A DNA stretch of 64,000 nt. Origin: a virus. Position 1 is the stretch's first letter. Each line of letters begins with the position of its first letter. Made by a program: the position numbers and the translations under genes. Under the pieces are notes generated by a model that was not told the origin of the DNA, did no database searches, and saw only the letters and a list, made by a program, of their open reading frames with translations. The stretch covers positions 1-64,000 of IMG/VR virus record IMGVR_UViG_3300045988_087270; one strand, 5' to 3'. Below, piece after piece: positions 5,077 through 58,317 of this stretch.

Positions 5077-5184
5077 AAAATTTAAGCAATTTCAGTAAGC
5101 TTAAATTTTTAAAAATTTTATATTTATTTGGATTTAATAAAATTTCATATATATTATAGTAATATTAATTTTAACTATATAAAT

Positions 5185-6237
5185 ATGAAATTTGTAATTA
5201 ATGAAGAATTAGGAGAAAAAATTAAGACTTTGTACTTAATAGATGGATTAAGCTGTACTAAGATTGGTAAAGAAGTAGGATTATCTACTTCTACTATAAG
5301 TTCATTTCTAAAAAGAAATGGGATTGAAGTAGTTAATAAACAAAACAAATTATTATTTGATCTAGATAAAGATATTATTCCTAAATATGAGCAAGGAATA
5401 AGTTTATCTAAATTAGCTAAAGAGTATCATACTTCTATCCAAACTTTGTCTAGAAAATTAAAAGCTAGAGGAATTGAAATAATTAATCATCAAAATGAAA
5501 CTAAGTTTAATGAACATATCTTCGATGTTATAGATACAGAGGAGAAGGCTTATTGGCTAGGATTTATATTTGCTGATGGTTATATTTCATCAAGAGATAA
5601 TGGTTTTGAACTATCTTTAAAAGGCTCTGATATTGAACACTTACATAAATTTAATAAGTTTATGGAGCATAATAAAGATAATGTCAAATTAGGGGAAGTT
5701 AAGTATAAAGATAAAACTTTTTTAAGGTGTCGCTGGGGAATAGTTAATAAGCACTTATGGAATACTCTAAATAATTTAGGATGTACTCCAAGAAAAAGTT
5801 TAACTCTTCAATTTCCTAATATTTCTGAAGAATTAGAAATTCCTTTTATTAGAGGGTACTTCGACGGAGATGGCTGTTTAAGTTACTATTAGAAGACAAA
5901 AATTATACCAAAAGCTTCATTTTTAGGAACTAGACAATTTTTAGTAAAGATACAAGCAATATTAAATAATTTTAATATAAAAAGTTCTTTAGTAAAAGAT
6001 CCCAGAATGGAAAGTACATTAATATTAAATATATCTTCAACAAATTCTTTAGATTTTTTAGACTTAGTATATAGTAATAGTTCCATTTATTTAGACAGAA
6101 AATATAAAAGATATAAAATTTTTAAAACTTGCCGTTCTAAACAGGAATGTTTAGAATTATTAGCGGGTGAAAACGGGGAAGGCTGTGATGCTAATCCCGT
6201 GGTAAATGAAGATAGTAACGAATCTTCATCACTGTAA
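5185..6237 (+). CDS. LAGLIDADG homing endonuclease (intron-encoded) with in-frame TAG at 5890-5892
   Basis: YWLGFIFADGYISS and RGYFDGDGCLSYY motifs. The product aligns full-length to the HE at 33854-34906 across the TAG; the track splits it into 5128-5892 and 6007-6237 in the same frame. Confidence 0.65.
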
Positions 6238-6344
6238 CGCGTAGAAGTTGAAACTCTTATAAGAGAATATAATACTTCCAAGAGCGCCCGCTCTCCCAAT
6301 CATTTGAATGGAGAAAAAGGTACGCTGAGCTATAACAAATAAGA

Positions 6345-6387
6345 AGTTATAGAAATATAGATAAAAAGCTATATGATAACAATACTG
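6345..6387 (+). repeat. conserved intron 3' terminal element, copy 1 of 3
   Basis: tatagaaatatagataaaaagctatatgataacaatactg; copies at 35016-35058 and 22660-22702 with covarying stem positions. Confidence 0.7.
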
Positions 6388-12213: not shown

Positions 12214-12294
12214 GTCTAGATAGCCAAGTGGTCAACGGCAGCAAGCTGTTAACTTGCCCCGAAAGGTTCCTAGGTTCGAATCCTAGTCTAGGCG
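12214..12294 (+). tRNA. type-II tRNA (Ser-like body, G73) with anticodon loop cuGUUaa
   Basis: Acceptor gtctaga/tctaggc, T-arm ctagg-ttcgaat-cctag, 3-bp D-stem with 11-nt D-loop, 12-nt variable arm, anticodon stem gcaag/cttgc; positions 34-36 read GUU. Confidence 0.55.
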
Positions 12295-12302
12295 CAATGA
12301 TA

Positions 12303-12365
12303 TATGCCTCTTATTTCTAAGGTTCATTACCTTCTCGAAAAGAAATGTGTACACAAGAGGCGCCT
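12303..12365 (+). other. structured RNA-like element (7-bp closing stem gcctctt/aagaggc, internal hairpins)
   Basis: Nested stems atttct/agaaat, aagg-ttcatta-cctt (T-arm-like) and palindrome gtgtacac, immediately 5' of the next tRNA. Confidence 0.3.
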
Positions 12366-12442
12366 GGAGTATTAAGCCCTGTTGGTAAGGGAACTAGACT
12401 GTCACTCTAGTAAAACTAAGGGTTCGAGTCCCTTATATTCCG
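12366..12442 (+). tRNA. tRNA-Asp(GUC), non-canonical D-arm
   Basis: Acceptor ggagtat/atattcc (one G-U), anticodon stem ctaga/tctag with loop cuGUCac, T-arm aaggg-ttcgagt-ccctt; the D-stem pairs only ccc/ggg. Confidence 0.5.
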
Positions 12443-12587
12443 CAAATAATGGAGAGCACCTAGCGTTTAACTGGGTAGTTGTTAGAGGTAGCGGTGGCAA
12501 TCCACGAGTATGCCTGATAGCTCAATATATTATTAGAATATGGTCACGATAGTTTGCCCGTCTAATGCCATATTTGCCTTTATTTAA

Positions 12588-12659
12588 GCTTCAATAGCAC
12601 AGTGGTAGTGCAGCATTCTTGTAAAATGCAGGTCGTAGGTTCAAATCCTACTTGAAGCT
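12588..12659 (+). tRNA. tRNA-Thr(UGU)
   Basis: Canonical cloverleaf: acceptor gcttcaa/ttgaagc, D-stem gcac/gtgc, anticodon stem gcatt/aatgc with loop cuUGUaa, T-arm gtagg-ttcaaat-cctac. Confidence 0.8.
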
Positions 12660-12668
12660 CTCTAATAT

Positions 12669-12740
12669 CGTGGGTTGTAGCAGTGGTAGCTTGTTTGTCT
12701 CATAAGCAAACGGTCATCGGTTCGAGTCCGATACCCACAA
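12669..12740 (+). tRNA. tRNA-Met or Ile2 (CAU)
   Basis: Acceptor cgtgggt/acccaca (1:72 C-A mismatch), anticodon loop cuCAUaa, T-arm atcgg-ttcgagt-ccgat. Confidence 0.65.
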
Positions 12741-12746
12741 CAAAAT

Positions 12747-12830
12747 TGTCTAGTATGTGAAGTGGTCAAACATGACTGACTGTAAATCAGCTGCTATTTA
12801 GCTTCGGGAGTTCGAATCTCTCCTAGACAA
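12747..12830 (+). tRNA. tRNA-Tyr(GUA), type II
   Basis: Acceptor tgtctag/ctagaca, anticodon loop cuGUAaa, long variable arm gctatttagc, T-arm gggag-ttcgaat-ctctc. Confidence 0.7.
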
Positions 12831-12850
12831 CTAATTAAAAAATAAATAAT

Positions 12851-13327
12851 ATGGAAAAAACTTTTAATTATCAATCTGATGCAAATTTCTATGATAAAAA
12901 GGATTTTATTATAGCTGTTTTAAAAAGAAAAATAAATAGTTTTAAAGAGTATGATGCTAAAAGAAAAAAGCATTATGCTGGACTAGAACAAAAAATTGGA
13001 GAATTAGAATCCTATATAGATGAATTAGAGAACGGACTTAGTATAGAATCTTTAAGTAATAAAATTCAATCTTTAGAAAATGAGATTGAGAAACAGAATC
13101 TTAAAATTAGAGAGTTAAGAGCTAAAGTTAATATATCTTTATTTGATGATACTAAGTCTTTTAGAGAATTAGAATCTATGGCAAATAATTTAAAAGACTT
13201 TAATAGCATGAAATTAGCTATTAAAGATCTTAGAAAACGGCTTAAAGATAACAAAAAAACTATATCTGATTTAATATATGAATTAACACAAGCTAAACTT
13301 AAAATAAAACAATTAACTGGAGAGTAA
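12851..13327 (+). CDS. coiled-coil hypothetical protein
   Basis: 158 aa; heptad-rich LENE/IEKQNLKIRELRAK. Confidence 0.5.
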   Translation: MEKTFNYQSDANFYDKKDFIIAVLKRKINSFKEYDAKRKKHYAGLEQKIGELESYIDELENGLSIESLSNKIQSLENEIEKQNLKIRELRAKVNISLFDDTKSFRELESMANNLKDFNSMKLAIKDLRKRLKDNKKTISDLIYELTQAKLKIKQLTGE

Positions 13328-13337
13328 TCTCCAATTT

Positions 13338-13411
13338 GGGGCGTCGGCTCAAGTGGTCAGCACCTGCTTTGCACGCAGGCATTCTTAGGAGTTCGAATCT
13401 CCTACGCTCCA
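13338..13411 (+). tRNA. tRNA-Ala(UGC)
   Basis: Acceptor ggggcgt/acgctcc with the G3:U70 identity pair, anticodon stem cctgc/gcagg with loop uuUGCac, T-arm aggag-ttcgaat-ctcct. Confidence 0.8.
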
Positions 13412-13431
13412 CTATTAAATTAAATATTTTT

Positions 13432-20929: not shown

Positions 20930-21268
20930 TTGCGGAAATTTATTTATCAATTAATGGTTGTTTATAGTAAATTACTTGAGAAATTTAATGATAGCTTAGG
21001 CTATGTAATATATGTATTCGAATTGTTAGATAATGAGGATAAGCTTAGAGAAAAAACTAAATATCTTATGTGTACTCAACCTCCTAATTGGAGTGCTGCT
21101 ACTATAAATTATGGGGATATTGGTTATCTTGAAGTGAAGCCTGTAATAGCAGGAATAGATGAATGGTACGATGGGGACACACAACAGAAATACAGATATA
21201 ATAATGTCTGGTTTATTAAGTTTGTCCCTCAAAGACCTAAAAACGTAGATGATATAATAATACAATAA
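20930..21268 (+). CDS. hypothetical protein
   Basis: 112 aa. Confidence 0.45.
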   Translation: MRKFIYQLMVVYSKLLEKFNDSLGYVIYVFELLDNEDKLREKTKYLMCTQPPNWSAATINYGDIGYLEVKPVIAGIDEWYDGDTQQKYRYNNVWFIKFVPQRPKNVDDIIIQ

Positions 21269-21284
21269 ATAATCTTTAAGATTT

Positions 21285-22271
21285 ATGACAACAGTTTTAG
21301 GTGATAAACTCAATAAAGCTTTTGAAGCTAAGAATAATGATGTAGAAACATTTCTCTGGAAAGGTTCCAGAAAAATTGTAAATGGTGAACGCGTTCAGTC
21401 TTCTATGAAAATGGTAGATATGACTGAGGAAGAATTACGTAATGCATATAAACATTGTGAATCAATGCTTTATAGTGACAACTATGAAAATCCTGGACGA
21501 CGAGTTTTGTTGGAACAGATTGAAGACCAAAGAACTCGCTGCAACGCTGAGTTATTTTTGATTTGGTTATTATATCCAGGTGAAGGTAGTACTAGACAAG
21601 GTATTGTAAGAACTAGTTTCTTTAATATGCTTAATCAACAAATTACTGCTCAAGCAGAACAGTTTGCTAAAGAGAATGCAGAAAGTGGAGAAGGCGAAAC
21701 AAATGTTAGTGCTATTGCAGAAACTCTTTTTAAAGAGTGGACTCTTAATGATATTATGAATAGTGATGAAGATTCATTTACTATGTTTGCTTCGTTGCCT
21801 TTATATATCGTTAGAGAAGCTTGTTTGTCTGCTTTAGGTAAATGTGTTCGTAAACACATTACTCTTACATTTATTACTGAGCTTGGATTGTGGTTTACAC
21901 GTTCTGAGTTATTGGAATTAAACAAGAAAGACGAGAATGGGCGTTTAGTAGATAGAATTAAGCAAGTTGCTGAACTTCTAAATATTAAACTGAGAGATCC
22001 TAAGAATCCTGAAGACAAGAAAGGTCTTGTTTTAAAAATTGATGATAGAAAAGGCTTAACTCTAAAAGAGTTTAGTGCAATGCTTACATTCCGTAAGGAT
22101 AAATATGATAAGCGTTATAATGATCTGACTAAAGTACAATTAGAAACCTTAAGAGATAAAGTTTTACTGCATCTTGAAAATAAGGTTAGATGGCAAGCTT
22201 CAGAATGGGAGAAGCGTATTAAACAAATTAAAGCAGTAGCTAAATATAATGGCTACAAACTCTCTGATTGA
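21285..22271 (+). CDS. hypothetical protein
   Basis: 328 aa, no motif recognised. Confidence 0.5.
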   Translation: MTTVLGDKLNKAFEAKNNDVETFLWKGSRKIVNGERVQSSMKMVDMTEEELRNAYKHCESMLYSDNYENPGRRVLLEQIEDQRTRCNAELFLIWLLYPGEGSTRQGIVRTSFFNMLNQQITAQAEQFAKENAESGEGETNVSAIAETLFKEWTLNDIMNSDEDSFTMFASLPLYIVREACLSALGKCVRKHITLTFITELGLWFTRSELLELNKKDENGRLVDRIKQVAELLNIKLRDPKNPEDKKGLVLKIDDRKGLTLKEFSAMLTFRKDKYDKRYNDLTKVQLETLRDKVLLHLENKVRWQASEWEKRIKQIKAVAKYNGYKLSD

Positions 22272-22380
22272 GGGAGAATTATTTCATAAAATCACTAGAG
22301 ATGAGCGACAAGAAGAGTGTCGTAGAAAATGGATAAAAAATCGTTGCGTTGGAACAATAGTTGCATCCACGGGATTTGGT
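22249..22380 (+). CDS. SF2 DEAH-box helicase, exon 1 (ends ...VASTGFG)
   Basis: The reading frame ends in the first half of Walker A. Joining GGT(22380) to AAA(22703) gives STGFGKS followed by motif Ia IIVPTETLQKQW. Confidence 0.6.
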
Positions 22381-22702
22381 ACTGTAAAAGCGGGTCATAT
22401 ACCCGTTAATTACGATGCCGTTCCGATAGAGGAATCTTCGGAATTATTATCGAGCAAAATCGGTGGAAGCCCTATAGAGGGTAATACCGAGGTAATAGAA
22501 GAAATTAAAGAATCTTCTACACCGTACAGCATAGAGAATGAACCTAATGAATAGTCTAGTTATTAACTAGACTATTTTTATTAGAATATAATTTCTCCAC
22601 GAGTGTTCGATGCCCCAACTGAAATAAGTGGGTAAAAATTTATGCGGGGCTTATTAGTAATAGTAAGAAGTATAGATAAAAAGCTATACGATAACAAGAC
22701 CG
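22381..22702 (+). mobile_element. ORF-less self-splicing intron (probable group I) at GGT^AAA of the helicase P-loop
   Basis: 322 nt; exon ends in U and intron ends in G; 3' ~45 nt homologous to the other two introns of this family; internal palindromic hairpin tagtctagtt/aactagacta. Confidence 0.6.
22660..22702 (+). repeat. conserved intron 3' terminal element, copy 3 of 3
   Basis: agtatagataaaaagctatacgataacaagaccg; stem gtatag/ctatac covaries with the other copies. Confidence 0.7.
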
Positions 22703-23860
22703 AAATCCAGAATAGGACTAAACTGTATTAAAACAGTGCTAAAACATTTTCCACAATATCGAGTACTAATAATTGTACCAACAGAAACTTTACAAAAGCA
22801 ATGGTATGGACATATAGACTCTAATGGATTAGGATTAAATTGTGATGTACAAATAATAAACACTGTAATAAAACATCCTGCCAAATATGATCTTTTAGTA
22901 CTGGATGAAGCTCATAGATATGCAGCTGAGACTTTTGTAAGATTATTTGAAGTAGTAAAATACCAATTTATCTTAGGTCTTACAGCTACTTTTGAGCGTC
23001 TTGATGGTAGGGATAAAATATTAGCACAATATTGTCCAGTAATTGATACTATTGATATTAATACTTGTCTTGCAAATGGTTGGGTTAGTCCATATAAAGA
23101 ATATCTAGTCTTAGTAAATGTTGATAATTTAGAAGAATATGAAAAAATAAATAAAGAATTCATTTCTCATTTTGAATTCTTCGGATTCTCTTGGGAGTTA
23201 GTTAATAAATTAGCTGGTCCTATGGGTTGGCGAAATAAACTACTCCTAAGAGATTCTATGTGTAGTGACCCTAACAAAAAATCTGAAGTATTACAAAGTA
23301 TAAATTATCATGCTATCAGATTTTGGGCTACTATGCACGAAAAGAAAGCTTTCATAAATAATCACCCAAAGAAAATTGAAATAGTAAAGAAAATTATAGA
23401 AGCTAGGAAGGATAAAAAAATAATAACTTTTGCCAATAATATTAAAATGGCAGAAAAAATTCCTAATGCTACTGTATATTCCAGTAGAACTTCTAAAAAA
23501 AGAAGTGCTACAGCTATTGAAGATTTTAACTCTGGAAAAATAACTTTATTATCTACAGTAAAAAAAGCTGATGAAGGGCTTGATGTGAAAGGTCTTTCTG
23601 TAGCTATTATATTTGGATTAGATAGCTCGACTACTAGAGCTTGTCAACGAAGAGGAAGATCGATTCGATTTGAACAAGGTAAGACAGCAGAAATATTCAA
23701 TATAGTATTGAATAGGACTCAAGAAACTAAGTGGTTTTATGATTCTCATAAAGGAGATTCTTTTATAACTATAGACGAATCAGAATTGGATAAAGTGTTA
23801 CAAGGTAAAGACTTTACTCCAGGTGAAAAGATAGTTCCTAAATTTGATTTTAGATTCTGA
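22703..23860 (+). CDS. SF2 DEAH-box helicase, exon 2
   Basis: Motif Ia PTETL, motif II LVLDEAH, motif III LTATFER, motif VI QRRGRSIR. Confidence 0.65.
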   Translation, partial: KSRIGLNCIKTVLKHFPQYRVLIIVPTETLQKQWYGHIDSNGLGLNCDVQIINTVIKHPAKYDLLVLDEAHRYAAETFVRLFEVVKYQFILGLTATFERLDGRDKILAQYCPVIDTIDINTCLANGWVSPYKEYLVLVNVDNLEEYEKINKEFISHFEFFGFSWELVNKLAGPMGWRNKLLLRDSMCSDPNKKSEVLQSINYHAIRFWATMHEKKAFINNHPKKIEIVKKIIEARKDKKIITFANNIKMAEKIPNATVYSSRTSKKRSATAIEDFNSGKITLLSTVKKADEGLDVKGLSVAIIFGLDSSTTRACQRRGRSIRFEQGKTAEIFNIVLNRTQETKWFYDSHKGDSFITIDESELDKVLQGKDFTPGEKIVPKFDFRF

Positions 23861-23938
23861 ATCTATGTATTAATATCGCTCTGAAAAGAGATTAGCTTAA
23901 TTACAGTATGGAAGATTTTTAATTATCCGAATTACTGT

Positions 23939-24550
23939 ATGTTTGATTTAAACATTGATGAAGAAATAACAATTTTAGAAAAATATAATATTACTCCTAC
24001 TGAATTATTTGTTGTTAAAGCTATAAATGCTTATATAGAAGATTATTCAGAAGATTATCTTCGTAGATATTTAGCTATTGATAAAAAATATGTAGGAAGT
24101 CTTATAGATGTACTTAAATCTTTACAAGATAAGGGTCTTATCCTTAAAAGCTATAAAATTATTCCAGGAATGAAACTAGTTCCTGAAGAGATACCATTTA
24201 ATAAGAACTTTCTAAAATGTTTAGCTAAGAGTTCCTTTGAAATGGGAAAAGAACTTAGAGAACATTATCCTAGATTTAGAAACATTAATGGATGCTTAAC
24301 TAGTATGCTAGGTGTTTCTAAAAAGTTTAATAGTCTTGAAGATGCTTATAGAACTTATGGAAAGAAAATCCATTGGAATGAAGAACTTCATAAAAAGATT
24401 ATTGATTTACTAGATTGGGAAGCTAATACTGATAATGGTATTATTAATTACAGCTTAGCTACATTTATTGTAGATGAAAAATGGGAAGATCTTGAAGCTT
24501 TAAAGAATGGAGACACTGGAATGGATTGTAATACTGTTACAACTTTGTGA
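23939..24550 (+). CDS. hypothetical protein
   Basis: 203 aa. Confidence 0.5.
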   Translation: MFDLNIDEEITILEKYNITPTELFVVKAINAYIEDYSEDYLRRYLAIDKKYVGSLIDVLKSLQDKGLILKSYKIIPGMKLVPEEIPFNKNFLKCLAKSSFEMGKELREHYPRFRNINGCLTSMLGVSKKFNSLEDAYRTYGKKIHWNEELHKKIIDLLDWEANTDNGIINYSLATFIVDEKWEDLEALKNGDTGMDCNTVTTL

Positions 24551-25617
24551 GTTTAGAAAGTTTTAAGAAAGAAGTAGAAAACGGTAGATTAGGAAGAAAC
24601 CATGGATTGAGCATAGGCTTATCTAAACTAGAAGAAATAACTGGAGGACTTACTAAAAGTACCTTTACATTGTTGTTTGCTAGTTCAGGAATTGGTAAAA
24701 GTTCTGCAGCATTATATTCATATGTTTATATTCCATTAAAAGAGCATCTAGAAGATGGTAAAATTAAGATTATTTTCTTTGCTCTTGAGATGAAAGAATC
24801 CTTTATTATAGCTAAACTATTAAGTACGTATTTGTATGATACTTATCATATTAGAATATCTGCTAAACAGATACTTTCTATAGGTAAAGATTATACCTTA
24901 CCAGATGATATATATGAATATGTAAAATTAGGATATGAATGGCTAGAAAAAGTATATAAAAATTTAATTATATTTGATGGTGCTCATACTTCTGATAAGG
25001 TAATATCTGAAATTATGCAGGTTCTTAAAGAAGAGGGCACTTTTGAAGATGGTCATTATACTCCTAATAATCCTGAACAAACTGTTTTAGCTGTAATTGA
25101 CCATGCAGGACTTTTAGTACCTGCTAATGGACGCACTAAAAAAGGAGAGATTGATGAATGTGCTAATAAACTTGTAGTTGTTAGAAATAAAACTGATTTG
25201 TCTATTCTTTTCATTATGCAATCTAATAGAAGTGTAGCTAATATGGAAAGAAAGAAAAATGAAGCATTCATGGAACCAATGGTTGAGGATATCAAAGAAA
25301 CTGGTACTCCAAGTGAAGCAGCAGAATTGATTCTAGCTGTCTATAATCCTCAAGTTGATAAACGTTCTTCTTATAGAGGATATCAAGTAAAAGAAATGGG
25401 TTATAGATTCAGAAGTATTCTTGTATTAAAATCAAGATATGGAGAAAATCAAGTAGCTGATTGTTGTTTCTTTGATGGCATGGTAAATAAATGGGTAGAA
25501 TTACCTCCACCTTCCGAGATTTATGATTATTCTAAATACCGAGCTACAGATAATAATAATTTAACAGATAATATTGAAGATGAAAAAGTAAAAAGTAAAT
25601 TAGACTATAGTTTATGA
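24547..25617 (+). CDS. DnaB-like replicative helicase (RecA-fold C-terminal domain)
   Basis: Walker A SSGIGKSS, Walker B AVIDHAGLL, QSNR motif. Confidence 0.55.
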   Translation: MSLESFKKEVENGRLGRNHGLSIGLSKLEEITGGLTKSTFTLLFASSGIGKSSAALYSYVYIPLKEHLEDGKIKIIFFALEMKESFIIAKLLSTYLYDTYHIRISAKQILSIGKDYTLPDDIYEYVKLGYEWLEKVYKNLIIFDGAHTSDKVISEIMQVLKEEGTFEDGHYTPNNPEQTVLAVIDHAGLLVPANGRTKKGEIDECANKLVVVRNKTDLSILFIMQSNRSVANMERKKNEAFMEPMVEDIKETGTPSEAAELILAVYNPQVDKRSSYRGYQVKEMGYRFRSILVLKSRYGENQVADCCFFDGMVNKWVELPPPSEIYDYSKYRATDNNNLTDNIEDEKVKSKLDYSL

Positions 25618-32559: not shown

Positions 32560-33786
32560 ATGAAACAAACAACAAAATCTTCTTATATTAAGTTCTTCAA
32601 TGATGCAATTAATAATAATCGTTCTTTAAAAGATCAATGTATTATATCAGAAAAAAATATAAATACTGTATATATGACAATGAAAAATCTTAGAAAGAAA
32701 GAAAATAAAGATGAAGATGATAAGAAGATATTGGAATTATATGACAGACTAAAGAATACTAAGAAAAAAGAAGTAAAAAAAGATACAGATAATGCTTCTA
32801 ATACTTGGGAAATAAGAGACGAAGAGACTGGTAAAATTACTGGATATAAGTTTGAGATTTTCAGAAGAAATAAGCCCGCAATCACAGGAGTCTTTACTAG
32901 AAACGAAATGAATAGTGTATATAGAATGTATACCTATTACGGTTCTGGTTTAACCCAGCAGATTGTCAGCAGATATTTCCCAGACTATTCTCTTATTGAC
33001 TTTAAAAGAATTTTACGAGCTTTTAATATTACTAAAGCATCCTCTCCATTTGCTCCTCATATGTATGAAGAATATACTGAGGATGAATTAAAAGAAATGC
33101 ATCTTAGAGAAAAAGAAAATGATTTCTTAAAAAGAATAGAGAAAGATGAAGTAAAGGATTTAAGAGCTTTAGTTACTAAGTTGACTAAGAAAACTTCTAA
33201 GTCTTTAAATAAGGAACTTATAGAAACTACTATTAAAAATACAGTAAAGGATTATAAAGAACTTCCAGTAAATATTAATAATAAAGAAACAAAATATCCT
33301 GATTTAATTATATGGTTATCTGATTTACATATCGGAGCTTATAATGCTAAGTATAGTAGTTTTGTACAGTTACCTTCTTATGATGTTCCAGAAATTAAAT
33401 CTAGATTATCTAGAATTGTAGAATCTTTTGTTGGACAAGAATATCATTCTGTATATGTAGTTAATCTTGGAGATTCTATTGATGGGTTCAATAAAGAAAC
33501 TACTAGAGGAGGTCATGAACTTCCTGAGATTCTTGATAATAAAGAAATTAGTGAAGCATTTATAGAATGTATGATGGAGTTCTTTGCTACTCTTACAGTA
33601 AAAGTAAAAAGCAAAGATTTTAATTATCTTTCTATAGGAGAATCTAATCATGGTGGGGATTTTGAATGGTTAAATCAAAAACTTTTAGCTGCGTATTTAA
33701 CTAAATATAATGTTAAGAGTTATATTAGTAATTATCCTATTGATAACTTTATTATTGGAGATCATCAATTCCTGTATGCTCACGGT
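32560..33786 (+). CDS. calcineurin-like metallophosphoesterase, exon 1 (ends ...FLYAHG)
   Basis: DLHIG, LGDSIDG and ESNHG motifs. The frame stops right after GGT(33786). Joining to AAA(35059) continues KDNNSQ... with the downstream GDLH and GHTK motifs. Confidence 0.55.
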
Positions 33787-33853
33787 AGAGTTTTGTAATA
33801 AATTTTAACATATTTTAATTATTATATTTCCGTGGAAGAGTTATAATACTCTC

Positions 33854-34906
33854 ATGGAAATATTAAATAATTTTTTAAATTCAGAATTAAAGCTAACTGC
33901 TTTTTGTAAAGCTAATAAAGTTAGCCGAGATTATTTAGAGCAATTATTAAAAGATAATAGCTATTCTTATAGTGTATATTTAACGGGTATAACTATTAAG
34001 AATTTAAATTTAGCTATAAAAGATTATATTAATTCTGATGCAGGATTACGTGCTTCCGCTATAAAATATAATATTGGAACACAAACTTTAAAAGCTCATT
34101 TAGTAACTTTAAATCTTTATAATCCTAATAAAAAGGGTAAAAAAGAAAAATCTTACAATGAACATTTTTTTGACAGTATAGACACTGAAGAAAAAGCTTA
34201 TTGGTTAGGATTTATATTTGCTGATGGTTATATTTATAGTTCCCCTCTAGATACATCCAAAGAAAGGATAGATTGGAACTTTGAACTATGTGCTAAAGGG
34301 GATGACAAAGAACATATGGAAAAATTTGCAAAAGCTATTGGATACAATAAAGAATTACATGTTACTAAAGCTGATAAATATGGACATACTAGATGTAGAG
34401 TATGTTTATCCAGTGAAATTTTATGGAAACAACTAAATTCTTTAGGATGTACTCCTAGAAAGAGTTTAACATTAAAATTTCCTGATGAAAGTATTTTTAA
34501 ATCCAAAGATTTAATTAGACATTTCATTAGAGGTTATTTTGATGGTGATGGATGTATTAGCTATGCTAATAAAGAACATACTATTCCAGTATATCAAATA
34601 CTTGGAACTAAAGAGTTTTTAAAGGTTATTATAAGTTATTTAAATATAGAAGAAACTTTATTTCATAATCATAATAATAAAAAAGAAGTTACTATGTATA
34701 TACAGGCTTCTAATAGAAAGGCTATGTATGTATTACATAAATTATATGATAATTGCTCAATCTATTTAAATAGAAAATATGAAAGATTTATTTATTTTTG
34801 CCGTATATTTGAGAAATCAAATATGTTAAAACAAACCAATATCGGTGAAAGCTGTGATGCTAATACCGAGATAACTACAGAAACTAAAGAGTCTGCAGCA
34901 TCGTAG
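33854..34906 (+). CDS. LAGLIDADG homing endonuclease (intron-encoded, intact)
   Basis: YWLGFIFADGYIYSS and RGYFDGDGCISYA motifs; full-length homolog of the HE at 5185-6237. Confidence 0.7.
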   Translation: MEILNNFLNSELKLTAFCKANKVSRDYLEQLLKDNSYSYSVYLTGITIKNLNLAIKDYINSDAGLRASAIKYNIGTQTLKAHLVTLNLYNPNKKGKKEKSYNEHFFDSIDTEEKAYWLGFIFADGYIYSSPLDTSKERIDWNFELCAKGDDKEHMEKFAKAIGYNKELHVTKADKYGHTRCRVCLSSEILWKQLNSLGCTPRKSLTLKFPDESIFKSKDLIRHFIRGYFDGDGCISYANKEHTIPVYQILGTKEFLKVIISYLNIEETLFHNHNNKKEVTMYIQASNRKAMYVLHKLYDNCSIYLNRKYERFIYFCRIFEKSNMLKQTNIGESCDANTEITTETKESAAS

Positions 34907-35015
34907 AGCGTAGAACTTGAACCTGAGAAATCAGAATAAAATAGTTCCAAGAGTGGTTTGCCCTCAGCACGTAAAGGTGGAGGTGAATATGTACGCCGAG
35001 CTATAGTAAATAAGA

Positions 35016-35058
35016 AACTATAGAAATACAGATAAAAAGCTGTATGATAACAAAACTG
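35016..35058 (+). repeat. conserved intron 3' terminal element, copy 2 of 3
   Basis: ctatagaaatacagataaaaagctgtatgataacaaaactg. Confidence 0.7.
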
Positions 35059-35358
35059 AAAGATAATAATTCTCAAACTAGACAATTTCCTCTTACTTTA
35101 AATCCTCAGACTGAATTATTCTTTGCTAATTATATAGCAGAAAAAGGTATATGTAGTCCTCATATTTATGTAGTAAAAGGTGATTTACATAATTATGCTT
35201 ATACTACTGGTAAACAGTTTGATTATATTTCAGTAGGTAGTATGTATGGTAGTAGTAATTATATTACAGCTAACTTTGGACATACTAAATGGAGTATTAA
35301 TTATACTATTGTAAAAGATAAAGATATTTTGATGGGAACTATTAAAGGAAATAATTAA
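35059..35358 (+). CDS. calcineurin-like metallophosphoesterase, exon 2
   Basis: Begins KDNNSQ...; carries the VVKGDLH and FGHTKW phosphoesterase motifs. The track ORF 35044 includes 15 nt of intron. Confidence 0.55.
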   Translation, partial: KDNNSQTRQFPLTLNPQTELFFANYIAEKGICSPHIYVVKGDLHNYAYTTGKQFDYISVGSMYGSSNYITANFGHTKWSINYTIVKDKDILMGTIKGNN

Positions 35359-56711: not shown

Positions 56712-56983
56712 TAATCCTTAAATTATTACAATTTTGTGGCACTCTATGGAAACATAGAGAATAAAAAATTGGGTGAATTGCAGGAACTTAAGGAAAATCT
56801 GCAGCCAAGCCAACCTTTAACAAAGTTGGAAGGTTCAACGACTAACTCTTGAAACTTCGTAAGAAGAATATAATAGAGACACGAGCGCCCAACACCTAAA
56901 CTATAAAGTAAGGTGATGAAATAGTCTAGCCTATATGGTAACATATAGAGCCTTGGATAAAGAGCCAAGGGTTAATACACGCG
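56712..56983 (+). mobile_element. ORF-less group I intron (td/IA2-like) in polA
   Basis: P1: exon gccat pairs with IGS gtggc at 56736-56740. P gaattgcagg, Q aatctgcagccaag, R gttcaacgactaac, S aaatagtctagcc, P9 hairpin ctatatggtaacatatag. Ends in G. Splicing gives AKGIEFAI|NYGGDF. Confidence 0.75.
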
Positions 56984-57452
56984 AAATTATGGTGGTGATT
57001 TTAATACTATTCACCGAAACAAAGGCATCTCTATAGAGGAAGCTAAAAAGATATATGAAAATTATATGTCAGGTTTCTCAGGATTAGCTAAATATCAAGA
57101 ATATTGTAGGAAAATAGTCATGGAAAAAGGCTATATACTTCTAAATCCTATAAGCAAATATAGAGCACATATATATGATTTTGAGTCTCTACGTTCAATG
57201 CAAGAAAAAATGCAAGATAGAGAATTTTGGAAGTATTATAGAGAAATGAAACGAGAATCTCCTAATTGTGATACAGTACAAGAAGTACGAGATTTCTTTA
57301 AGAAAAAAGGTGAGTGTGAAAGGAATAGTATAAATTATAGAATACAGCATACTGGAGCTTTATGTTATAAAGTAAGTATGATTTATTTCTTTAGATGGAT
57401 AGTAGAAAATAATCTTTTTAATAAGGTTTTAATTACTATTACCCCCTACGAT
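56984..57452 (+). CDS. family A DNA polymerase, exon 2
   Basis: Completes motif B (NYGG...EEAKKIYENYMSGFSGLAKY) and continues to ...KVLITITPYD. Confidence 0.65.
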
Positions 57453-58317
57453 AAATAATCTTGTCGTAGTAAAACGATGTTAATTGCTTGGAACTCCTAA
57501 AGATTTAATTACTAAATTATTGAAATAATAAACCAGTAAAAATATTAAATATGATTTTACCTCAGTTAAAAGAAATGGACAATAAGCAGCTTTATAATTT
57601 TACAAGAGAACAAACTCAAGTATTTCTAACAGGACTGCTAGGTGATGGATGTATATCTACTACAAATAGTGGTAGTTATATTTATACTACAAATTGTAAG
57701 CATCTTGAATATTTAGAATTTAAAAAGAAATTATTAGGTAAAGGAAATATTAGACTCCAAGAAAGAAATGGCTATAGTCAAACTCCTATATATACTATGT
57801 ATGGGGGAGCTTACCCAGAATTATTTGAGTTTAAAGAATTTACTGTTCAAGATGTTATTGAAAACTTAGATTTACTTGGGTTAGCATTATGGTTTTACGA
57901 TGATGGTAGCCTTCATAAAAGAGATTTACATTATAATTTAAATACTCAAAAGTTCCCAAAGTATATACAAGAAGGAATTTTTATTCCATGGTTTGATTCC
58001 TTAGGCATTAAAGCTAATTTAAGACATGATACAAAAAGAGGAAAAGAATTGTATTATTTAGGAATTAATAAATATGAAGGAGCTAATATTATTAGTGAAA
58101 TACTATCACGTTATCCATTAGATTGTTACTCTTATAAATTATGGAGTTCAGAGACTATCCTGAAATGGAGTAAGCTGCAAGAGCAGGTGAAAAGCATCGA
58201 TGAAAATCTTACTAATAGGCAATTAGCTTATAAGTGGAGGTTTTTATAAGATATAGTCCGAACCTATATGAAAGTATAGGAGAATATATGGAATCGATAT
58301 ATTCGTAACAATATATG
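57453..58317 (+). mobile_element. group I intron in polA with LAGLIDADG ORF
   Basis: P1: exon acgat pairs with IGS gtcgt at 57464-57468. 3' S box aagatatagtccgaacc and P9 hairpin cctatatgaaagtatagg (GAAA loop). Ends ...tatatG. Splicing gives ...TPYD|EINCEAP.... Confidence 0.65.
57551..58249 (+). CDS. LAGLIDADG homing endonuclease (intron-encoded)
   Basis: LTGLLGDGCIS and LALWFYDDGSL dodecapeptide motifs. Confidence 0.7.
   Translation: MILPQLKEMDNKQLYNFTREQTQVFLTGLLGDGCISTTNSGSYIYTTNCKHLEYLEFKKKLLGKGNIRLQERNGYSQTPIYTMYGGAYPELFEFKEFTVQDVIENLDLLGLALWFYDDGSLHKRDLHYNLNTQKFPKYIQEGIFIPWFDSLGIKANLRHDTKRGKELYYLGINKYEGANIISEILSRYPLDCYSYKLWSSETILKWSKLQEQVKSIDENLTNRQLAYKWRFL

Follow-up and report, generated by a model that had tools for sequence, protein, structure and literature searches.

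Group I introns have been known in phage genes for decades (T4, SPO1, Twort and many others) and are characterised by a pseudoknot between the helices P3 and P7. The orf142 introns of the Staphylococcus phage Twort belong to subgroup IA2; their self-splicing has been demonstrated and a crystal structure is available. The defining features of group I introns, their targeting of conserved codons and the homing cycle of the mobile ones have been described (PMC3984707), and a study of introns in Bacillus phages (Bastillevirinae) found that phage introns are more diverse than the Rfam and GISSD models capture (PMC11878797). Here, we analysed 64,000 nucleotides (nt) of viral DNA (positions 1 to 64,000 of the IMG/VR record IMGVR_UViG_3300045988_087270, called the window throughout), an AT-rich sequence (29% G+C) in which a 322-nt element, W3, lies within a gene for an XPB/Rad25-like superfamily 2 (SF2) helicase. 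W3 is very probably an intron, inserted between the codons for Gly and Lys in the Walker A motif of this helicase in an uncultured human-gut phage, and it can be placed with high confidence among the group I introns of the phage-type IA lineage. Over the 4 kb compared (21000-25000), the window is 96% identical to MT835492.1, an unannotated 121.6-kb 'Bacteriophage sp.' from human faeces.

Joining position 22380 to position 22703 in silico yields a 429-amino-acid (aa) XPB/Rad25-like SF2 helicase with motifs I (ASTGFGKS), Ia (IIVPTETL), II (DEAH), III (TAT) and VI (QRRGRSIR) in this order. This agrees with an earlier note on the same DNA, which had proposed a Walker A motif split at GGT^AAA and restored to STGFGKS by splicing. 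The joined product is matched by the Pfam families ResIII (3e-19), Helicase_C (2e-15) and DEAD (1.5e-9), and the junction is crossed by both the ResIII match (residues 19-83) and the DEAD match (residues 21-88). The best solved relative in the PDB is archaeal XPB/RAD25 (3.6e-23), and its alignment likewise spans the junction ('ivastgfgksriglnci' aligned with 'ivlptgsgkthvamaai'). Both exons are free of frameshifts and stops. In a protein search with the joined product, 25 of the matches listed have exactly 429 aa, with 86-99% identity at 100% coverage; 18 of these 25 are 96-99% identical. The 429-aa matches stem from uninterrupted genes of related phage contigs. The same search also returned 374-aa fragments (P0026-P0038) from interrupted alleles. 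Exon 1 corresponds to residues 1-44 of the uninterrupted homologues P0001 and P0008 with 99% identity (identical or nearly so), hence the helicase N-terminus is not encoded elsewhere, an outcome that the earlier note had named as one that would contradict an intron.

The boundaries of W3 follow from related contigs. The intron-less contig L125 aligns to window positions 22000-22381 and 22709-24000, and the window contains exactly 322 extra nt. A second relative, L001, a phage 96% identical to the window, carries a longer insert at the same site, and its homology with the window ends exactly between 22380 and 22381 and restarts at 22414. Since excision of 322 nt restores the helicase that is found uninterrupted in sister genomes, the boundaries 22380/22703, which had been predicted from the letters of the window, are exact. 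Judged from the uninterrupted alleles, the ancestral state is a single helicase chain. At the junction L125 reads GGATTTGGT AAG AGT AGA, whereas the window exons read GGATTTGGT followed by AAA TCC AGA; GFGKSR is encoded by both. Intron-less sites occur in two variants, GGTAAGAGTAGA (as in L125) and GGTAAATCCAGA. Between the window and L125, four of the first six bases of exon 2 (22703-22708) differ synonymously (AAA TCC vs AAG AGT), compared with ~97% identity elsewhere in the helicase. A similar difference was seen in the DnaB-like gene of the window at 24698-24715 (AAA TCA AGT GCA GCC CTA in the window vs AAA AGT TCT GCA GCA TTA in L001), with flanks ~96-97% identical. Beside both insertion sites, in the helicase and in the DnaB-like gene, the synonymous changes thus cluster in the first codons of the 3' exon, which could reflect co-conversion or immunity to the endonuclease.

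To identify the class of W3, relatives were collected from IMG/VR with a 17-base pattern from the 3' domain; more than 120 stretches matched, and in nearly all of these a homologous core was confirmed with nhmmer. Helices P6, P6a, P7, P7.1, P8, P9 and P9.1 were named on a MAFFT alignment of 72 sequences. From P6 to P9.1, 97.0% of the alignment cells are paired, compared with 66.4% in shuffles, and double changes occur in 32 of the 37 pairs; none of 500 shuffles reached the observed values. When the partners were slid by 1-3 columns as a control, pairing fell to 29-44%. The strands of P3 are located between P2 and P4 and in the 7 nt that follow the invariant CCA(A/C)GAG. Column by column, P3 is 70% paired in the MAFFT alignment, with one subfamily off by one column, and strands were instead matched sequence by sequence. 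Across 38 sequences, strands from the same intron form 7.1 contiguous base pairs (bp) on average, mismatched partners only 4.2, and the helices are very diverse (UCGAGCA/UGUUCGA, CAAACCA/UGGUUUG, UUCCGAA/UUCGGAA and others). Read from 5' to 3', the first strand of P3 precedes the first strand of P7 and the second strand of P3 is enclosed by the P7 helix; P3 and P7 therefore form a pseudoknot.

The substrate helix P1 and the 3' end fit the same architecture. In open reading frame (ORF)-less relatives, the exon end N(3-5)U together with 2-3 intron bases pairs with UUU-G-NNN, and the splice-site U is always opposite the conserved G. Exon end and guide covary (GGU:GCC, GAU:GUC, GCU:GGC and CCU:GGG). 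In W3 the last base of exon 1, U22380, is the splice-site U and faces G22417, which gives a U.G wobble at the 5' splice site. The family tail consists of GAUAACA, then 3-6 nt, then G, and is kept in the ~108 non-redundant relatives listed. Folded alone, W3 has a z-score of -7.9, and its minimum free energy structure reproduces P2, P3, P4-P6a, P7.1, P7.2, P9 and P9.1, but not P7. The coordinates of all features are given in Table 1.

Table 1. Features of the interrupted helicase gene, structural elements of W3 and further introns in the window.
Feature	Position	Strand	Description
Helicase exon 1	22249-22380	+	ATG at 22249, MATNSL...; 44 codons; ends ...GCATCCACGGGATTTGGT (VASTGFG), GGT = 22378-22380
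Intervening element W3	22381-22702	+	322 nt, between the helicase exons, without an endonuclease gene
Helicase exon 2	22703-23860	+	385 codons; begins AAATCCAGAATAGGACTAAAC (KSRIGLN); stop ends at 23860
P1 5' strand UGGU^A	22377-22381	+	pairs with U-GCCG 22416-22420 (U.G, G-C, G-C, U.G, A-U); putative cut after U22380
Small hairpin in loop L1	22390-22406	+	stands in for the 924-nt endonuclease-bearing L1 of L001
Internal guide sequence UGCCG (P1 3' strand)	22416-22420	+	family UUGCC, UUGUC or UUGGC; covaries with exon end
P2 hairpin UUCCGA...UCGGAA	22421-22443	+	compensatory changes even relative to the 96%-identical relative (UUCUG../..CAGAA); paired in the alignment to model R1
P3 5' strand UCGAGCA	22450-22456	+	pairs with 22604-22610 UGUUCGA; pseudoknot with P7
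P4 CGGU/ACCG, A-rich J4/5 and J5/4, P5 GCCCU/AGGGU	22461-22489	+	P4 95% paired; CGGU/ACCG to CGGG/CCCG changes
P6 GGU/ACC and P6a UAGAAGA/UCUUCUA	22491-22523	+	10/10 pairs change on both sides; 93% paired (72 sequences)
P7 5' strand GCAUA	22529-22533	+	pairs with 22641-22645 UAUGC; 100% paired; third pair A-U in 40, G-C in 31
P7.1 GAGAA/UUCUC	22534-22597	+	encloses P7.2-like extension 22544-22584; 99-100% paired, all pairs covary
Single-stranded CCA(A/C)GAG	22598-22603	+	invariant columns, 72 sequences; directly 5' of the P3 3' strand
P8 hairpin	22612-22633	+	93% paired; 4/4 pairs covary
P9 hairpin CUUAUUA GUAA UAGUAAG	22650-22667	+	98% paired
P9.1 hairpin	22670-22689	+	invariant loop AUAAAAAG; 99.5% paired; 6/6 pairs covary
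3' tail GAUAACAAGACCG	22690-22702	+	omega G22702 last; aligns with GUAACAUAAUUG of Twort introns
W1	5077-6387	+	1311 nt; AAA-type ATPase gene, GSG^KT of Walker A; R1 223.6 bits
W2	33787-35058	+	1272 nt; gene 32560-..., at AHG^KD; intact LAGLIDADG ORF 33854-34906
W4	56712-56983	+	272 nt, no ORF; family-A DNA polymerase gene, EFAI^NYGG; R1 match 56732-56984
Fifth intron	57453-58317		Twort-like type, AAGAUAUAGUCC ... GUAACAAUAUAUG; same polymerase gene, PYD^EINC

For an assignment free of the sequences under study, the covariance model R1 was trained exclusively on 26 IMG/VR cores, leaving out the window and L001; a model of the 3' domains of three window introns had originally been suggested for this search. 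R1 recognises W3 over the full model with 159.8 bits (E 1e-49) and with every pair canonical, and W1-W3, the three members proposed before, were recovered at 160-224 bits (W2 with 202.1 bits). All three are homologous as claimed, and W4 (117.4 bits, E 7e-36) brings the family in the window to four. Nor is the homology confined to the last ~45 nt, as first described: it spans the whole ~290-nt core at 63-68% identity. R1 also matches the three Twort orf142 introns over their full length with 64.9 (E 8e-19), 54.9 and 26.7 bits, placing P2, P4, P6, P7, P8, P9, P9.1, the tail and the terminal G in register; P7 of W3, which is expected to be the guanosine-binding helix, is thereby aligned with P7 of the Twort intron (GACUA/UAGUC). 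Between P7 and P3', where introns of subgroup IA2 have the extra helices P7.1 and P7.2, W3 contains an insertion (22534-22597) of one stem with a nested length-variable extension, plus an invariant 7-nt linker, and the R1 alignment treats P7.1/7.2 of Twort as an insertion. In 100 IMG/VR loci (L002-L101), R1 gave 138 matches at E ≤ 1e-5, the strongest of which (> ~100 bits) are the family and the weakest of which include other group I introns; an intron in L022 that is recognised by the Rfam model RF00028 (Intron_gpI) is also matched by R1 (37.9 bits). Many loci (e.g. L044, L022, L108, L059 and L006) contain 2-3 copies a few hundred bases apart, sometimes beside RF00028-positive introns, and in some family members the endonuclease ORF seemingly sits in the P5 loop and not in L1.

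The P7.2-like extension of W3 differs in length among family members and holds a hairpin (22551-22575). Within 22544-22592, a 9-bp hairpin (AUAGUCUAG/CUAGACUAU) followed by UUUUUAUU resembles an intrinsic terminator directly 3' of the stop of the relic ORF described below; its sequence is unchanged in L001 but degenerate in R4, an intron in another gene of L001. An intrinsic terminator formed by the hairpin at 22551-22575 and its U-run was rejected, since a terminator scan did not call it and the hairpin belongs to the variable P7.2 extension. A promoter-like match (10/12) at 22563-22592 overlaps the hairpin; 12 such matches were found compared with 16.6 expected in shuffled sequence.

W3 had been described as ORF-less. 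This holds insofar as no intron-encoded homing endonuclease gene is present. The reading frame of exon 1, however, runs 58 codons into W3 (22381-22554, + strand) up to a TAG at 22552-22554 within the P7.2-like extension, and the last ~46 of these codons, which overlap P2 to P7.1, are left over from the C-terminus of a LAGLIDADG endonuclease. The relic tail ...SSKIGGSPIEGNTEVIEEIKESSTPYSIENEPNE matches the C-terminus of an intact endonuclease in L001. There, the same site is occupied by a 1212-nt intron with 924 nt of L1, compared with 33 nt in the window, and the insert contains an intact 319-aa ORF with two LAGLIDADG-type motifs (YWLGFIFADGY and FDGDGC). Because the C-terminus of the 319-aa ORF (...SSKIGESPIEGNTEVIEEIKESSTPYSIENEPNE) is the sequence read through from exon 1 in the window, W3 is a derivative that lost the endonuclease gene. 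In the family, this ORF lies in L1, downstream of the 5' splice site and upstream of the guide, continues through P1', P2, P3, P4-P6, P7 and P7.1 and ends within the P7.2 extension; the ~46 codons survived in W3 since they overlap the ribozyme core. Three kinds of alleles are therefore found at one site: empty (e.g. the P0006 cluster with 1382 sequences), endonuclease-bearing (L001) and endonuclease-less. By comparison of these alleles, W3 is the endonuclease-less stage of the classical homing cycle. The exact 101-aa read-through product occurs on 30 contigs and belongs to a 90% cluster of 435 members. That the ORF-less allele is so abundant speaks for its viability and, probably, for continued splicing.

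From the architecture of the RNA we infer that W3 splices as other group I introns do. After transcription the RNA would fold, and a free guanosine bound in P7 would attack after U22380. The freed 3' OH of U22380 would then attack after G22702, and GGU would be joined to AAA, so that the mRNA encodes STGFGKS with the P-loop restored. The predicted ligated-exon sequence in the window is GGATTTGGT joined to AAATCCAGAATAGG.

Several observations weigh against a functional group I intron. RF00028 gave no match in the window at the gathering score, where Rfam reported only tRNAs and no intron family, and none at E ≤ 10 on 22200-22900 (701 nt). In ten loci it matched no member of the family, and in two of them it recognised other introns beside members. 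P1 of W3 is short, with 5 bp including two wobbles, and P10, convincing in W2 (AAA:UUU), is weak or absent in W3 and R4 and was not used as evidence. While in W1, W2, W4 and two introns of L001 a stop follows within 1-4 codons of the 5' splice site, W3 has no early in-frame stop and is readable for its 58 codons from P1' to P7.1, so ribosomes may enter the core; in the T4 td intron, ribosome read-through can reportedly hinder folding. The RF00028 miss was not counted against group I, because the same model scores the Twort introns with 64-101 bits while missing the whole lineage. A search with the family profile in nhmmer found nothing in the Twort genome, and only the covariance model bridged the gap. 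Taken together, the match of R1 to the Twort introns and the failure of RF00028 point to a lineage that is related to the phage IA2 type but not covered by the curated model.

The short P1 and the open frame bear on a further explanation, namely that W3 is a dead intron: a group I descendant that splices poorly after loss of its endonuclease or maturase and invasion of the core by ribosomes, leaving the helicase a pseudogene or expressed in traces. The LAGLIDADG protein that is missing in W3 would fit this as well, as such proteins can act as maturases (PMC3984707). We nevertheless regard a dead intron as improbable: in the R1 alignment every core helix of W3 is canonical, both exons are intact and share 96-99% identity with their uninterrupted homologues, and an allele found on at least 30 contigs and in a cluster of 435 would be unexpected if it were lethal or decaying in a helicase of the replication module.

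Even less probable is a split gene that does without splicing, in which the 101-aa product (exon 1 plus intron tail) and a 374-aa product starting at GTG 22736 are made separately and act as a two-piece helicase or independently. Public assemblies do call both ORFs as separate genes and the 101-aa ORF is conserved; this conservation of the intron tail is, however, explained by the overlapping ribozyme helices, whose covariation is at the RNA level. Furthermore, the Walker A motif is cut between G and K and the 374-aa ORF starts within exon 2 past the Lys-Ser of the P-loop, which leaves a P-loop in neither piece, and the uninterrupted alleles indicate an ancestral single chain. Group II introns begin with 5' GUGYG, contain domains V and VI, end with 3' AY and are usually longer than 600 nt. 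An element of another kind (intein, group II intron, translational bypass element, transposon or miniature inverted-repeat transposable element (MITE)) is highly improbable, for although inteins are common in P-loops and LAGLIDADG domains are typical of them, the frame of exon 1 stops at 22552-22554 and does not reach exon 2, W3 starts with ACUGU and ends with CCG within 322 nt with no group II family among the Rfam matches, target-site duplications and terminal inverted repeats of a transposon or MITE are lacking, and the RNA-level covariation fits group I. A group I intron thus remains the preferred reading of W3.

The other introns of the window and of L001 place W3 in a family of mobile elements. 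The endonucleases of W1 and W2 match Pfam LAGLIDADG_3. The LAGLIDADG ORF of W1 (5128-6237) is in frame except for a single TAG at 5890-5892, and this endonuclease gene was probably inactivated recently. A genome-wide reassignment of TAG, as known from gut phages with recoded TAG (PMC10607447), was considered and rejected, since opening TAG lengthens few ORFs of the window. The host gene of W2 (32560-33786 joined to 35059-35358) gives a spliced product of 508 aa with no Pfam match at 1e-3; by eye, it contains metallophosphoesterase-like motifs (GDSIDG, GESNHGG and AHG^K). W4 has a P1 of GCCAU^ / GUGGC and the tail GGUUAAUACACGCG. The fifth intron carries a LAGLIDADG_2 ORF (57551-58249) and was reported by neither Rfam nor R1, which may be due to the ORF interrupting its core. 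With both introns removed, the polymerase has 682 aa and a single continuous DNA_pol_A match (residues 270-668). R4 (L001 5088-5468), an ORF-less intron of 381 nt, interrupts the Walker A motif (GIG^KS) of a DnaB-like helicase; the DnaB-like gene of the window (24547-25617) is uninterrupted at this site (between 24697 and 24698). R4 shares 85% identity with W2 and has retained ~55 codons from the tail of a W2-like endonuclease; it is therefore a recent jump into a different gene. Identity among the family cores is far lower (63-68% over ~260-290 nt by local BLAST), as it is among their endonucleases (42-48%), and they are old paralogues. The group I class, the loss of the endonuclease, the fourth family member and the fifth intron go beyond what the earlier note contained. 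Apart from the introns, the window contains six tRNA genes (Asn, Asp, Thr, Met, Tyr and Ala) at 12214-13412 on the + strand.

W1, W2, W3 and R4 all have GGT 5' and AAA 3' of the intron in four unrelated genes, three in the window and one in L001. The ligated exons GGUAAA are complementary to the family guide (UU)UGCC, which corresponds to P1 plus a weak P10. The host site of W2 (HG^KD) is not a Walker A motif, so the determinant would seem to be the nucleotide sequence and not the encoded motif. In a set of 99 non-redundant relatives, a Lys codon is the first of the 3' exon in 26 and the 3' exon starts with K[ST] in 7; L067 provides a verifiable TGYG^KTQV insertion site. Reverse splicing is guided by 4-6 nt of P1 (PMC3984707). 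A tentative and on balance rather doubtful idea is that the lineage picks its sites at the RNA level, with the Gly-Lys codons of Walker A motifs or a chance GGUAAA (gene 32560) serving as landing pads for reverse splicing and the endonuclease only fixing the intron afterwards. If true, it would explain both the four diverged paralogues at GGT^AAA and the recent W2-like jump into the DnaB-like gene of L001. The data do not favour spread by guide-directed reverse splicing over spread by tolerant endonucleases or vice versa. A literature search yielded no directly matching report of group I introns in Walker A motifs of phage genes.

For annotation, the consequences are immediate. Gene callers report the helicase as two pieces, a 'hypothetical protein' of 101 aa and a fragment of 374 aa without P-loop, and hundreds of such fragments are deposited in public databases; the same problem affects the AAA ATPase, gene 32560 and the DNA polymerase of the window phage. 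As RF00028 is blind to the lineage, routine pipelines miss the family, and a dedicated covariance model would recover it. Our understanding of how group I introns work is unchanged by W3, which is an ordinary kind of mobile element and one of at least five in the window. It comes from a lineage that standard models overlook, and its locus illustrates the homing cycle and ectopic movement cleanly in nature: within one phage species, a single site presents the empty, endonuclease-bearing and endonuclease-less stages, and a recent ectopic jump is seen as well. The helicase locus is thus a natural system in which to ask whether the ribozyme guide or the endonuclease sets new insertion sites.

Compared with the known systems, the W3 family is closest in build to the Twort orf142 introns, with which it has the helix order P1-P2-P3-P4-P5-P6/6a-P7-(P7.1/7.2)-P3'-P8-P7'-P9-P9.1 in common. 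The 3' domain is the same (J8/7, P7', UGAAC, P9 with a GNRA loop, AGAA, P9.1 and G(A)UAACA-N-UG), and the Twort introns are likewise small, ORF-less and present in several copies per phage. Differences are found in P7 (GCGUA/UACGC in the family and GCAUA/UAUGC in W3, but GACUAU/AUAGUC in Twort), in the region that follows it (one P7.1 stem with a nested extension and the invariant CCA(A/C)GAG linker, whereas Twort has two tandem hairpins) and in the L9.1 loop AUAAAAAG, which is invariant in the family. The T4 introns in td, nrdB and nrdD and those of Bacillus phages (SPO1, Bastillevirinae; PMC11878797) are also mobile and reside in conserved codons of genes for DNA metabolism, and as here endonuclease-containing and endonuclease-less variants are distributed patchily among close relatives. 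Their endonucleases are mostly of the GIY-YIG or HNH type and located in P6a, P7.x or P9.1 loops, whereas the family described here uses LAGLIDADG proteins encoded in L1, with the last ~46 codons over P2-P7.1, and the host genes encode P-loop nucleoside triphosphatases instead of td, nrd or pol products. Inteins in the P-loops of DnaB, RecA, terminase and helicases occupy the same type of site, often with LAGLIDADG domains and by the same logic of targeting an invariant sequence; they are removed at the protein level and need a continuous frame, whereas W3 contains stops and an RNA catalytic core.

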